From Octopus vulgaris (lineage: Eukaryota), in the NCBI GenBank assembly GCA_951406725.2, contig OX597823.1:59024001-59088000 (forward strand): DNA of 64,000 nt. Direction: 5' to 3'. Below are positions 5,553 through 33,600 of this stretch, in pieces. Below the pieces are notes generated by a model. It saw only the letters and a list, made by a program, of their open reading frames with translations, did not search any database and was not told where the DNA came from. Both the position numbers and the translations under genes were made by a program. The first letter of the stretch is position 1. The number at the start of each line of letters is the position of its first letter.

Positions 5553-6429
5553 TATAAACATTTTATACTGATACCAAATGTAAGCAACAAATCTTCTGGG
5601 ATTAAGCTTTTCTTTTTCAGGATTAAACACAAACCAACAGTAAACACCTGGTCAGTTTGATCTCTCTTTTAAAAGAGATTTATCGGAAGATTATTCTCAT
5701 ACAGTTGAATTCAATATGTTTTATTCACTTCTTCAGATGAGAGTTAACATGTATTCAGTTTAAGTCAAAATACAATTCATATTTATAAATGTCTTTTAGT
5801 TAAAGTAAAGAATAGTTACTTTCCTATAAATATTTTTGTTTCGTTTATAAGCTAACAGACGTATGGCTTCTGTTCTTCAACATGAAAGCATTAAAGCGAT
5901 TTCCTTATAACGTAAATTATCAACGTACGTAGGTGGATGCAATAGGGTAAGTAGGAAGAGCAACAGGGTGAGTTGAAGTGACATGATCTCAATCTGTGGT
6001 TGAAATGATTTCCTTTCATTTTCATTGATAATGACCAGTGAGAAATGCATCAACAACACAGTTGCGACCTACAGGTCTTAGTTTTAGATACAAAATATTT
6101 TGAAGAGTTAAAAACAAAAAAACAACAAAATAGACATTTGTGTAATAAAGGAAACCTCATTGCGAATTTAATGGAAATATTTGTCTCCAAGTCTTTCACA
6201 CGAAATGAATAAGTAAAATAATAGAATCGTATAGTTTTGTGTACAAACGTATAGCAATGGTTTTTAAAGAATCAATTCTATATTTTGTTTAATTCTTTTA
6301 AGTAAAGAGTAATATATATACATATTCATACACATCTAATCTTTATGTACATACATAGGTATATGTAAGTACACGGACACTCATGCATACATATCTATCT
6401 TTCTATCATTCCCCCCTCTCTCTCTCTCC

Positions 6430-12939: not shown

Positions 12940-13320
12940 TTTTTCTATTCCAGGCACAAGGCCCTAAATTTTGGGGGAGGGGACCAGTCGATTAGATCCA
13001 CCCCAGTACGCAACTGGTACTTAATTTATCGACTATGAAAGTATGAAGGGCAAAGTCGACCTCACCGGAATTTGAACTCAGAACGTAAAGACAGACGAAA
13101 TACCTATTTCTTTACTACCCACAAGGGGCTAAACACAGAGAGGACAAACAAGGACAAACAAACGGATGAAGTCAATTATATCGACCCCATCACGCAACTG
13201 GTACTTATTTAATCGATCTCGAAGGGATGAAAGGCAAAGTCAACCTCGGCGGAATTTGAACTCAGAACGTAGCGGCAAACGAAATACCTATTTCTTTATT
13301 GCCCACAAGGGGCTAAACAT
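12940..13320 (-). mobile_element. SINE family B tandem multimer (184-bp period)
   Basis: Core repeated at 12987 and 13171; tail-to-truncated-head junction gacgaaatacctatttctttactacccacaagggg. Confidence 0.85.
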
Positions 13321-20518: not shown

Positions 20519-21171
20519 GAGGGAGAGTCAGAAATTATACGCACTTTTGTTTTTTCAATACATTTATACAGAAACAGGGGATAAACAAGTACGTTATTTT
20601 TCTATATAGTCTCTTTCCTTTACGATGCACTTTGTCCAGCAGTCCATAAGCTTGCGTATTCCCTCCAAAAAGTTTTATGGTTGGTTGTGCAACCATTTAT
20701 GCACCGTTTCCTTCACATCCTTCATCCATAGTAAATCGACGATCTCGTAAACCATCTTTAAGCGAGTATTCCAGCATCTCAAGCCCCAACTGGTTAATGG
20801 TTTCAACGGTCTGGGCGGGCGTGTGTCGGCGTGCATTGCCATGCAACAACAAAACCTTCTTCGACAATAGGTTTCGGCGTTTGGTGCGAATTGCTGGCTC
20901 CAGTTTGTTAACCAGCAAATCACTGTGTCTTGCATTGTTGATCGTACACCTCTTTTCCAGAGAAATCGGGTCACTGATCTTTGTTCTTCTTTGATGCACA
21001 TTGCTAGTAGAGTGGTCATGCTTACACTGTCAAGCCAGAAACAAAAATGGCGCGATGAGTCTCAAATTTCAGTCACGTGACTACAATAGTACCAACTAGT
21101 ATGCATGCATAGAAGGTAGTGTGACAATAATAAAGATGTTATGGCGAAAGAGCGGATAATTTTTGGCTTCC

Positions 21172-24273: not shown

Positions 24274-24689
24274 CCAGTAGCAGCGACAGCAGTAAACCAT
24301 GATATTGATGACTCATATATTATCTTGTAGTGCTGATTTCAATTCATCATGTTAGAAATTCTTCTAGTGATAAAACACATTCCACAGACAATCAAAGAAA
24401 CTATATTCTTGAGAAGGTTATAATGCTTCCCAAAGTGACTTCCAGGAGCTATAATGTTAGAATGGTTAAGTACTAGTATGTTTTCGTGCTATTTGTTTAG
24501 GTTTGTTTTCTAGAGAATTGATATGAATATTAAACATCTTTATATGTGTGCATGTGTGTGTATATGCTCGCGAATGTAAATATGCATTACTATATGGATC
24601 TGTAATGTAGGTATGTATGTATGTATGTATGTATGTATGCATGTACGTACGTATGTGTGTATGTGCATACACATGTATATATATGTATA

Positions 24690-24744
<55 letters not shown>

Positions 24745-24748
<4 letters not shown>

Positions 24749-25480
24749 CAACAATTGAGGGTAAAATTAATTAATTATTAATCAATTTCACCAAGTGTTC
24801 AGTATGCAAAGGGACCATTTAAGGCGAATTCAAATTATTACATTATATAAAAGGGCTTAGTAAAATAAATTACTTTGCCGCATACTGAACTCATTAGAAA
24901 TAGCAGCTAAAAAACTTTTTTAAAGCTATTTCTAATACTTAAAGAAAATCTCTCTCATATATAGTGTTTGCTTAATTCAACTCACAAAAGTTTGGGGGTA
25001 AGGACATCAAAAAATCAAATGCTAAGGTTATTTGAGAACGTACGTTTCAAGATTAGTCAAAACAACACTTCTATCATCAGCTCAGAAACTCCTTGGTTTG
25101 GATTTGGAAACACTGAAAGTAAGAACATACCCTTTCGAAGATCCGCTCGTAACTAACAGTGCCAACAAACCCAAATAAGCAAGCGAAGAATTTCTGTTCT
25201 CCCCTTTCCACCAGCGTGGGTTAAAATCATCAAACACTATGCTTATTTCGGTAAAATCCGAAGCATTAATTAGAGGGAGATTAATTATAATTTCAACAAT
25301 TGAGGGTAAAATTAATTAATTATTAATCAATTTCACCAAGTGTTCAGTATGCAAAGGGACCATTTAAGGCGAATTCAAATTATTACATTATATAAAAGGG
25401 CTTAGTAAAATAAATTACTTTGCCGCATACTGAACTCATTAGAAATAGCAGCTAAAAAACTTTTTTAAAGCTATTTCTAA

Positions 25481-25484
<4 letters not shown>
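24745..25484 (-). mobile_element. Young retrozyme-like element: 545-bp unit with identical 195-bp direct terminal repeats, inside (TA)n
   Basis: 24745-24939 equals 25290-25484 with no differences found by eye; TA arrays on both sides; central hammerhead; extensive nested inverted repeats; no meaningful ORF. Confidence 0.85.
25033..25084 (-). ncRNA. Type I hammerhead ribozyme motif with canonical core
   Basis: Minus strand: UGAG CUGAUGA U-AGA-AGU..ACU-AA-UCU-U GAAA CGUACG UU CUCA; stem III palindrome ACGUACGU; GUU triplet. Confidence 0.75.
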
Positions 25485-25518
<34 letters not shown>

Positions 25519-25520
<2 letters not shown>

Positions 25521-25798: not shown

Positions 25799-25809
25799 AA
25801 CTATGAGAA

Positions 25810-26800
25810 GAAGTAACAATATTTCTAAATTTGCAGCATAAGGCAGATCTCCATTATAACTTCCAGTCTGAAGGCTTTCGGCAATCTATAGTTTACCTGG
25901 TGGACATCATCGAAGCGTTGAATGCTCTCGACTTTAAACTACAAGGGGAAAACATCAACAGTCTCACGCACCACGACACCATTCCAAACTTCATGTCCAT
26001 ACTCGACCTCATGAAATGTCGATTTCAGCAGGAAAATACAAGCAGTTTTAGTTGCTTGGATCCTGCTCTCATTCACGGTAACCTTGATTCTGAGAAGCAA
26101 ATAATCACTCATCTAACTGATTTGAAAACAGAATTCATCAGATACTTCCTAGATATAGATAAAAGCGTGAAGCTTAGAAAGTCATCAGGAACCCATTTCA
26201 GTGTGAAGTGACTGATGTTTTGGATGAAGTGCAAGAGGAGTTTCTTGAGCTGAAGTTCAACTTCCCAGCTAAGGAAGACTTCAAAGAATTGGATCTTGAA
26301 ACGTTTTGGATCAAGTACCTTCCTGTTTACCCTCTAATCTCACATCAGGCTCTTCAGATTTTAGCTATGTTTAGATCCACGTATCTTTGTAAAGCTACAT
26401 TTTCCACGCTCGTTGCTGTCAAGACTAAATGCAGAAACAGGCTGAACGTTGAAAGGGACTTATGTTGTGCCCTTTCTGGCAATCGACCACGCATTCAAGA
26501 TCTTGTGGCTAAGAAGCAGTGTCCAGCAACTCACTAATAATCTGACTGATTCATATTCAATAAAAAACTTTTTGCTAAGAAGCAATGTCAAGAATCTCAC
26601 ATTTAGTATAATGTGAATTATATATGAAATTGTACATATTTTGTATAACGTGACTAACTAATATTCAATAAAAAGACTAAAAACATATCTTCGATTTTAT
26701 TTAAAATCTGGGAATTTTATTCACAGTTGTAGTGGGGGGGTATGGAGAGAAAGAGAAATTCCCAGGGGTGGTTTCGTAGTAAAAAGGTTAAGAACCACTG
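25810..26800 (+). mobile_element. 3' part of a hAT transposon (Buster/Charlie, ZBED8/FAM200-like), pseudogenised
   Basis: YLVDIIEALNALDFKLQG, HLTDLKTEFIRYF and the dimerisation domain FW..YPLISHQALQIL..STYLCKATFS..KTKCRNRLNVERDL..KKQ. Terminal aaaaaggttaagaaccactg is followed by ctcTAcat, a Buster-type nnnTAnnn site. Confidence 0.9.
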
Positions 26801-33069: not shown

Positions 33070-33600
33070 ATCCTTTCCACTCTAGGCACAAGGCCCGAAA
33101 TTTTGGGTGAGGGGGATAGTCGATTATATCGACCCCAGTGTTTCACTGGCACTTAATTTATCGAACCCGAAAGGATGAGTGGCAAAGTCGACCTCGGCCG
33201 AAATTGAACTCAGAACATAATGGCAGGCGAAATACCTATTTGTTTACTACCAACAAGGGGCTAAACACAGAGGGGACAGACAAGGACAGACAAACGGATT
33301 AAGTCGATTATATCGACCCCAGTGCGTAACTGGTACTTATTTAATGGACCCCGAAAGGATGAAAGTTAATGTTAACCTCGGCGGAATTTGAACTCAGAAT
33401 GTAACGGCAGACGAAATACTTATTTCTTTACTACCCACAAGGTGCTAAACACAGAGAGGACAAACAAGGACACACAAACGGATTAAGTCGATTACATCGA
33501 CCCCAGTGCGTAACTGGTACTTATTTAATCGACCCCGAAAGGATGAAAGGCAAAGTTGACCTCGGCAGAAGTTGAACTCAGAACGTAAAGACAGACGAAC
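33070..33600 (-). mobile_element. SINE family B tandem trimer (184-bp period)
   Basis: gtcgatta(t/c)atcgaccccagtg at 33119, 33303 and 33487. Confidence 0.9.

Follow-up and report, generated by a model that had tools for sequence, protein, structure and literature searches.

Animal non-LTR retrozymes, as portrayed in the available text of PMC7229834 and 10.64898/2026.07.22.740005, are non-coding, low-GC tandem units with one type I hammerhead ribozyme per unit; they occur as dimers to multimers in thousands of copies, have no LTR, are predicted to form strongly self-paired circles, and share their genomes with Penelope-like elements (PLEs). PLEs have been proposed as retrozyme helpers; in the literature as far as accessible, retrozyme mobility is still a hypothesis, and the mechanism behind the tandem and inverted arrangements of PLEs is without an in vitro system. 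All of these structural features recur in a 545-nt unit found in a window of 64,000 nucleotides of Octopus vulgaris DNA, and our verdict is that this unit and its relatives form a new clan of animal non-LTR retrozymes, of a known kind, probably working as non-autonomous PLEs. The unit length (545-602 nt) exceeds the 150-450 bp of the animal retrozymes in the text available of PMC7229834 and falls within the 51-972 bp of 10.64898/2026.07.22.740005. Unlike the published animal retrozymes, as far as these accounts describe them, the monomer hammerhead is predicted to be blocked, no sequence link to a PLE pseudo-LTR (pLTR) was found here, and the insertions are inverted and dispersed, with a tail and with 3' ends fixed at two sites. 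The strings 'inverted' and 'truncat' are absent from the main text of PMC7229834, and the examined text of 10.64898/2026.07.22.740005 contains no such analysis of ends.

With the EN+ Neptune-type PLEs, as described in the accessible part of PMC8557442, the element shares 5' truncation, partial tandems, an inverted 5'-truncated arm, a tail at one end, a (TA)n target and a hammerhead near the 3' end; unlike them, it has no ORF, forms whole-unit arrays of up to about 12 units, carries a tail of about 95 nt instead of 30-40 nt, and shows no recognisable homology to the 3' ends of the sampled PLEs. Plant LTR retrozymes and hammerhead viroids, in the sections available of PMC7229834, resemble it in length (about 550-600 nt), in the branched-rod circle and in a ribozyme that alternative pairing is predicted to shut off, and differ from it in that the ribozyme of the octopus unit is type I, not type III, occurs in one polarity and is not accompanied by an LTR. 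None of the observations calls for RNA-to-RNA replication of the viroid kind. In the literature searched for retrozymes, Penelope elements or hammerheads of octopus and other cephalopods, Craig et al. 2021 was the one relevant paper, and catalogues such as Repbase may already list the family; insertion anatomy of the kind reported below was not found for retrozymes in the literature searched (mostly open papers, without supplements).

The insertion in the window (24745..25484, minus strand, 740 bp; locus record L004) is a single-armed, 5'-truncated copy of the family. It consists of a full unit of 545 nt with 33% GC (24745..25289, minus strand) and a partial upstream unit (25290..25484, minus strand), and is flanked on the left and right by (TA)n target microsatellites at 24676..24746 and 25484..25519, a target-site duplication being unreadable inside the tract. 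Identical 195-bp repeats (24745-24939 and 25290-25484) at a spacing of 545, with TA tracts on both sides, had been reported in the initial annotation, and were recovered exactly. As the copy begins at the fixed 3' end termed A (see below) and breaks off at position 195 of its second unit, the 'direct repeat' is a by-product, and 25484 is a variable 5'-truncation point (unit position 195), not the edge of an LTR. The two identical direct repeats would also suit a TRIM, an LTR retrozyme whose LTRs measure 195 bp, a local duplication or an artefact of assembly. Such readings are hardly credible: the 195-bp boundary does not recur, there are no TG..CA ends, the repeat does not include the ribozyme, which is of type I, and the more than 2,000 copies genome-wide dispose of a single-copy duplication or assembly artefact. 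No tRNA was found in the unit, and the longest stop-to-stop frame is 77 aa (in a near-identical tandem array), so that the unit is non-coding. The window locus is one ordinary daughter copy; as it has a single arm and a single hammerhead, double cleavage could not free a monomer from it, and it has probably reached a dead end. Taken together with the genomic evidence that follows, the most suitable explanation is that a non-coding, hammerhead-bearing tandem retroelement inserted here recently in 5'-truncated form, likely copied by a PLE reverse transcriptase (RT)/GIY-YIG endonuclease from a probably circular RNA, a composite reading that we consider fairly likely on the strength of sequence comparison.

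A search of the genome (2.8 Gb, 227 contigs) gave 1,274 candidate places for the unit; among the 40 that were scored, the best full-length matches were 99-100% identical, lay on many contigs and often formed head-to-tail arrays, which bears out the earlier description of a young, hammerhead-bearing retrozyme-type unit and shows it to be multi-copy. Copies are dispersed over most large contigs. Exact-pattern matches amounted to 1,447 with the ribozyme core fixed (control 0) and to 2,153 with the core left free (control 0), the latter being a lower bound on hammerhead copies, and a wider clan pattern gave 3,552 matches (control 3). The head-to-tail arrays run from 2 to about 12 units, and family members hold at least two consecutive hammerheads. 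Subfamilies have units of 545-565 nt that are 86-99.6% alike. Three sister families, traced through the 3' 200 nt, have units of 578, 602 and about 562 nt; they are colinear, 54-71% alike, and retain the ribozyme, whose helices change in a compensatory manner.

The type I hammerhead of the window copy (25024..25094, minus strand) has a predicted cut at 25037|25036. Its core is composed of CUGAUGA (25080-25074, minus strand) and GAAA (25048-25045, minus strand); helix I pairs 25084-81 with 25036-33 and continues in an outer part, helix II (25073-49) has a U·U at its base, and helix III is palindromic. The minus-strand hammerhead originally proposed was thus sound in its canonical core and predicted cut, with the amendment that helix II is closed by U·U, not G-C, and that the triplet is GUU. 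A relaxed type I descriptor matched the real unit once, and matched one of 3000 base-shuffled units; both strands of the unit were scanned, the minus strand alone giving the match. Rfam returned no hammerhead at the gathering score across the window, and on the locus only chance matches at E<=10. In all 100 of the matches listed for the core-free pattern the core reads CUGANGA plus GAAA, and what varies in these same 100 is N7 (U/A/C), H17 (U/A), the base of helix II and loop 2. Over four families helix I is always paired, as UGAG/CUCA, CAUG/CAUG, UACG/CGUA and UGAG/CUCG, in a comparison that was preselected for at least three of four paired positions and hence shows pair types, not rates; pairs 2-3 of helix II likewise change on both sides across the families with pairing kept.

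The hammerhead of family 3 is of the textbook form, with G-C and GUC, and matches RF00163 weakly (22.3 bits; gathering score 34). The U·U closure of helix II is shared with an axolotl hammerhead, HHR_Amex2, which does cleave according to the available text of PMC7229834. Against this, only one of nine predicted Xenopus dimers cleaved in the work of Li et al. 2026, in the part accessible (10.64898/2026.07.22.740005). Given the U·U pair and the GUU triplet, the ribozyme of the window copy looks weak; we take the ribozyme to be real at the level of the clan and, as far as sequence and fold prediction indicate, probably slow or gated in the window's subfamily. The natural series from U·U/GUU to G-C/GUC could show whether the length and success of arrays depend on the rate of cleavage. 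As a separate observation, the longest arrays, L241 (about 11 units) and L242 (12+ units), carry a GUA triplet, with G·U at the base of helix II in L241; they hint that a better ribozyme leads to a longer array, n being small and L242 being edged by assembly gaps.

All six complementarities listed in the initial annotation are present, with 9/10, 10/10, 6/7, 7/7, 11/11 and 12/12 positions paired. Five of them are part of the ensemble predicted for the circle, mostly at a pair probability >0.9, including the long-range helices 24947-56/25273-82, 24961-70/25231-40 and 24979-85/25216-22, which close a branched rod (24947..25282, minus strand); the sixth, 25028-34/25172-78, has a probability of 0. 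Folding of the circular monomer, which had been proposed as a check, gave a fold far more stable than those of shuffled sequences: the minus-strand unit reached -144.7 kcal/mol, the mean of 12 dinucleotide shuffles being -105.2 (z about -8.5). For family 2 the circular fold gave a weak z of -1.6 (aged copy). In the window's subfamily the hammerhead pairs have probabilities near 0, and forcing the active fold costs about 10 kcal/mol in the circle. An alternative inactive fold, as suggested at the outset, is therefore predicted; the helix 25028/25178 held responsible for it has to be given up, and other pairings take its place. RNAalifold on 14 units yielded 99 predicted pairs, 29 with double change; among the pairs are those of the 3' hairpins, the rod and helix II, together with a helix (25201-25196/25039-25034) expected to mask the cut site; the input sequences being related, this covariation is support, not a significance test. 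The 3' hairpin module (24745..24945, minus strand; hairpins at 24797-24890 and 24893-24936) is the best-conserved stretch across the four related families, and would be the region of recognition and priming.

For the insertion anatomy, 87 locus records were mapped and 75 tallied. The 12 dropped were complex or nested (L025, L137, L177, L184), contained an assembly gap (L141), gave split matches (L152, L155), were fragments (L154, L160), duplicated L166 (L165, L174), or had an atypical start at unit 381 (L188, which would be a fourth non-fixed outer end). The sampled loci were those with the best full-length match or holding a hammerhead, so that short truncated copies are under-sampled. Two inverted arms were present at 60 of the 75 loci and a single arm at 15. 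The 135 outer ends fall at unit 1-4 (end A, 70), at unit 88-100 (end B, 62) or elsewhere (3), and an A end is combined with a B end in 56 of the 60 inverted insertions. Sites A and B, about 95 nt apart, each contain TATA and adjoin (TA)n. In the window copy, end A corresponds to unit position 1 (24745..24748, minus strand), with TATA microhomology to the (TA)n target; the TATA-rich end B used by other copies corresponds to 24832..24844 (minus strand), and the stretch between the two (24745 to about 24840, minus strand) is the PLE-type tail. Both A and B are 3' ends of the hammerhead strand, which is thereby independently marked as the sense strand.

The 135 inner ends of the 75 loci are distributed almost uniformly over the whole unit (range 31 to 545; KS p=0.29). 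Truncation at the cut site was not significantly enriched among them (3 observed, 1.7 expected); ends near unit 120-128 cluster at borderline strength (scan p about 0.02), and a BLAST edge effect explains part of the pile at 545. Circularly permuted copies with variable starts, which had been anticipated, are not supported by the tallied loci: variation is confined to the 5' ends, the 3' ends lying at two fixed sites. With a fixed 3' end, 5' truncation, an inverted arm, a one-sided tail and a microsatellite target, the insertions display the hallmarks of the PLE type.

Helitron end motifs are 5' TC and 3' CTRR, and neither was seen at the mapped ends. This bears on a quite different reading, namely that a Helitron-like DNA rolling circle or a satellite made the arrays at the DNA level, with the hammerhead being incidental. 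Tandem arrays of homogeneous units in AT-rich targets would fit such an origin, but one end of each arm is freely variable, the arms are inverted, the ribozyme strand has its 3' end at either fixed site, the copies are dispersed, and the RNA structure covaries; the reading is largely refuted and in our estimation very improbable.

A search for GIY-YIG led to a young two-ORF PLE with an upstream frame of 479 aa and an RT-CxxC-GIY-YIG frame of 781 aa, represented by L094:744-5960 (G000:C6:133342500 onward), which has a 504-nt pLTR and a 40-nt tail. Its copies are 100% identical over the 3' 256 nt at many loci, in (TA)n. It has two 3' ends 40 nt apart, and three of 26 distinct insertions are clearly inverted; 5' truncation, pLTR-type partial tandems, inverted arms and the 40-nt tail on one arm were also observed. 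The CxxC linker, as described in the accessible part of PMC8557442, suggests that this PLE is of the Neptune type, and a homolog search confirmed RT/GIY-YIG relatives of the 781-aa frame, no PLE clade being named by the matches. A second, older-looking PLE family ends in (TA)n (3' UTRs of L309, L311, L316 and L334) and has open frames of up to about 930 aa. By eye, the 3' end of the L094 PLE shows a degenerate motif resembling a hammerhead (about 5850-5895), in which helix III is palindromic, and the second family appears to have a type I hammerhead with a long helix II as well as two 3' ends, about 150 nt apart, that were primed by TA.

At the level of sequence, the unit and these PLEs have nothing in common that could be detected. 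Alignment of the unit to the 3' end of the 781-aa PLE was no better than alignment to shuffles; profiles of the module and of the whole unit, run against 41 GIY-YIG locus records, found only separate neighbouring insertions; and the unit profile found no common sequence in 30 loci of the second family, several PLE families being thinly sampled. No unit joined to a PLE frame was found by tblastn in 199 locus records plus 20 further loci with about 4 kb upstream. PLE fragments occur in flanks only, and in L038, L097, L146, L287, L299 and L311 they are separated from the unit by TA repeats or unrelated DNA. The pLTR, inverted-arm and tail anatomy has been described for PLEs (PMC8557442, in the part available), and as unit and PLE agree in target and anatomy without a common sequence, it is only the shared anatomy that points to the partner. 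On this anatomical ground a PLE is well supported as the class of helper, the helper family being pinned to neither of the two sampled, and mobilisation of the unit by PLE-type machinery is considered very probable.

That the unit is instead only the pLTR or 3' end of an unsampled autonomous PLE could account for the identical insertion anatomy, and one may recall that hammerheads occur in PLE pLTRs (PMC8557442, available text) and that vertebrate retrozymes resemble pLTRs (10.64898/2026.07.22.740005, available text). Upstream of end A, however, the unit joins directly onto another unit in all 181 passes, the PLE fragments in the tblastn searches are confined to the flanks, and the 3' UTRs of the two PLE families gave no profile match, which leaves this alternative very unlikely. 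The genome pairs a very young retrozyme clan with an intact and equally young Neptune-type PLE of the same target and end anatomy, and the co-resident pair makes PLE mobilisation and the proposed retrozyme life cycle directly testable. Apart from these, L146:939-1240, in a TA tract, is a short, unrelated element with inverted arms and probably represents a further non-autonomous insertion of the PLE type.

What remains to be considered for a PLE-mobilised unit is the form of the RNA template. The 1.36-unit length of the window copy had been taken to imply a circle, an argument that fails by itself, since the autonomous PLE of the same genome also makes partial tandems; it is the long seamless arrays and the haplotype patterns that favour a circle. 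Passes over the cut site without an indel numbered 250 of 250, and over end A all 181 passes were likewise seamless, the patterns having required intact flanks. Arms traverse the cut site up to about 11 times. With priming about 195 and 292 nt 3' of the cut, arms that cross it could not come from a linear monomer that had been cleaved there. Among 39 records, 15 substitutions are private to one array and yet present in every covering unit of both arms, as exemplified by A230G in nine of nine segments of L181; such private fixed haplotypes are the pattern expected from repeated copying of one monomer sequence. A further 12 substitutions occur in some, not all, units of an array (L008, L172, L177, L179, L181-L184; L241 and L244 are also mixed), and not every template can therefore have been one monomer. 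In the eight units of L181 (G000:C3:21719900-21728000), minor variants recur at a period of four units, possibly reflecting a multimeric circular template or a later DNA or block duplication.

The mixed arrays, including the four-unit pattern of L181, would also suit a PLE-dependent element whose template is the linear, uncleaved multimer of a master array, with a weak or mostly shut ribozyme and growth by RT template jumping or unequal crossing-over. The predicted inactive fold, the U·U pair and the GUU triplet fit this as well, and the autonomous PLE forms seamless partial tandems without a known circle. Set against it are that copying of a linear multimer can only shorten arrays, yet arrays of 9-12 units are young and homogeneous; that private variants are fixed in all units; that junction scars, which template jumps would presumably tend to leave, are absent; and that the ribozyme is conserved with covariation across 54-71% identity. 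A linear template is accordingly rated as unlikely, and a circular RNA template, judged from the arrays and their haplotypes, as reasonably probable.

For a circular template the following sequence of events can be proposed. Arrays with at least two hammerheads would be transcribed, and self-cleavage and ligation would give 545-nt circles, sometimes multimeric. The PLE endonuclease would cut both strands of (TA)n, and the freed TA ends would anneal to the two TATA sites ~95 nt apart on the RNA. RT from both primers could then round the template for 0.1 to >10 units and stop at variable points, which would produce head-to-head arms, one of them with the ~95-nt tail. The more general proposal, a clan of ~550-600-nt circular RNAs that parasitise PLEs without sharing sequence with them, in which both cut strands prime on one ribozyme-made circle and RT rolls round it, is put forward tentatively, with slightly more doubt than conviction. 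If it is true, the fixed ends, the ~95-nt tail, the single-haplotype arrays and the higher-order repeats left by multimeric circles would amount to a genomic record that directly documents rolling-circle target-primed retrotransposition in animals.

No sequencing run recorded as RNA was listed with the unit. Most of the unit is covered by contigs of five runs whose RNA nature is a guess; with no silent control alongside, with strand, ends and circles being unreadable from contigs, and with tandem DNA giving the same junction as a circle, this coverage is not counted as evidence of expression. Several of them share one haplotype (window 25008T, 25236G and others), which matches that of L165, L166 and L174, and one ends at 25036, which may be a graph break. 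L165, L166 and L174 (G000:C24, 38.88-39.0 Mb) are one array present in three copies inside a segmental duplication; the array adjoins not TA but a transposon fragment that we take to be mariner-like. Within the window, no host gene is evident near the insertion. Decayed DNA-transposase-like reading frames are present at 20675-21061 and 25807-26537, presumably mariner-like and hAT-like, respectively. Tandem units of 184 bp occur at 12986-13319 and 33118-33599, in 1.8 and 2.6 copies; they belong to an abundant interspersed repeat, fragments of which are found elsewhere in the window.
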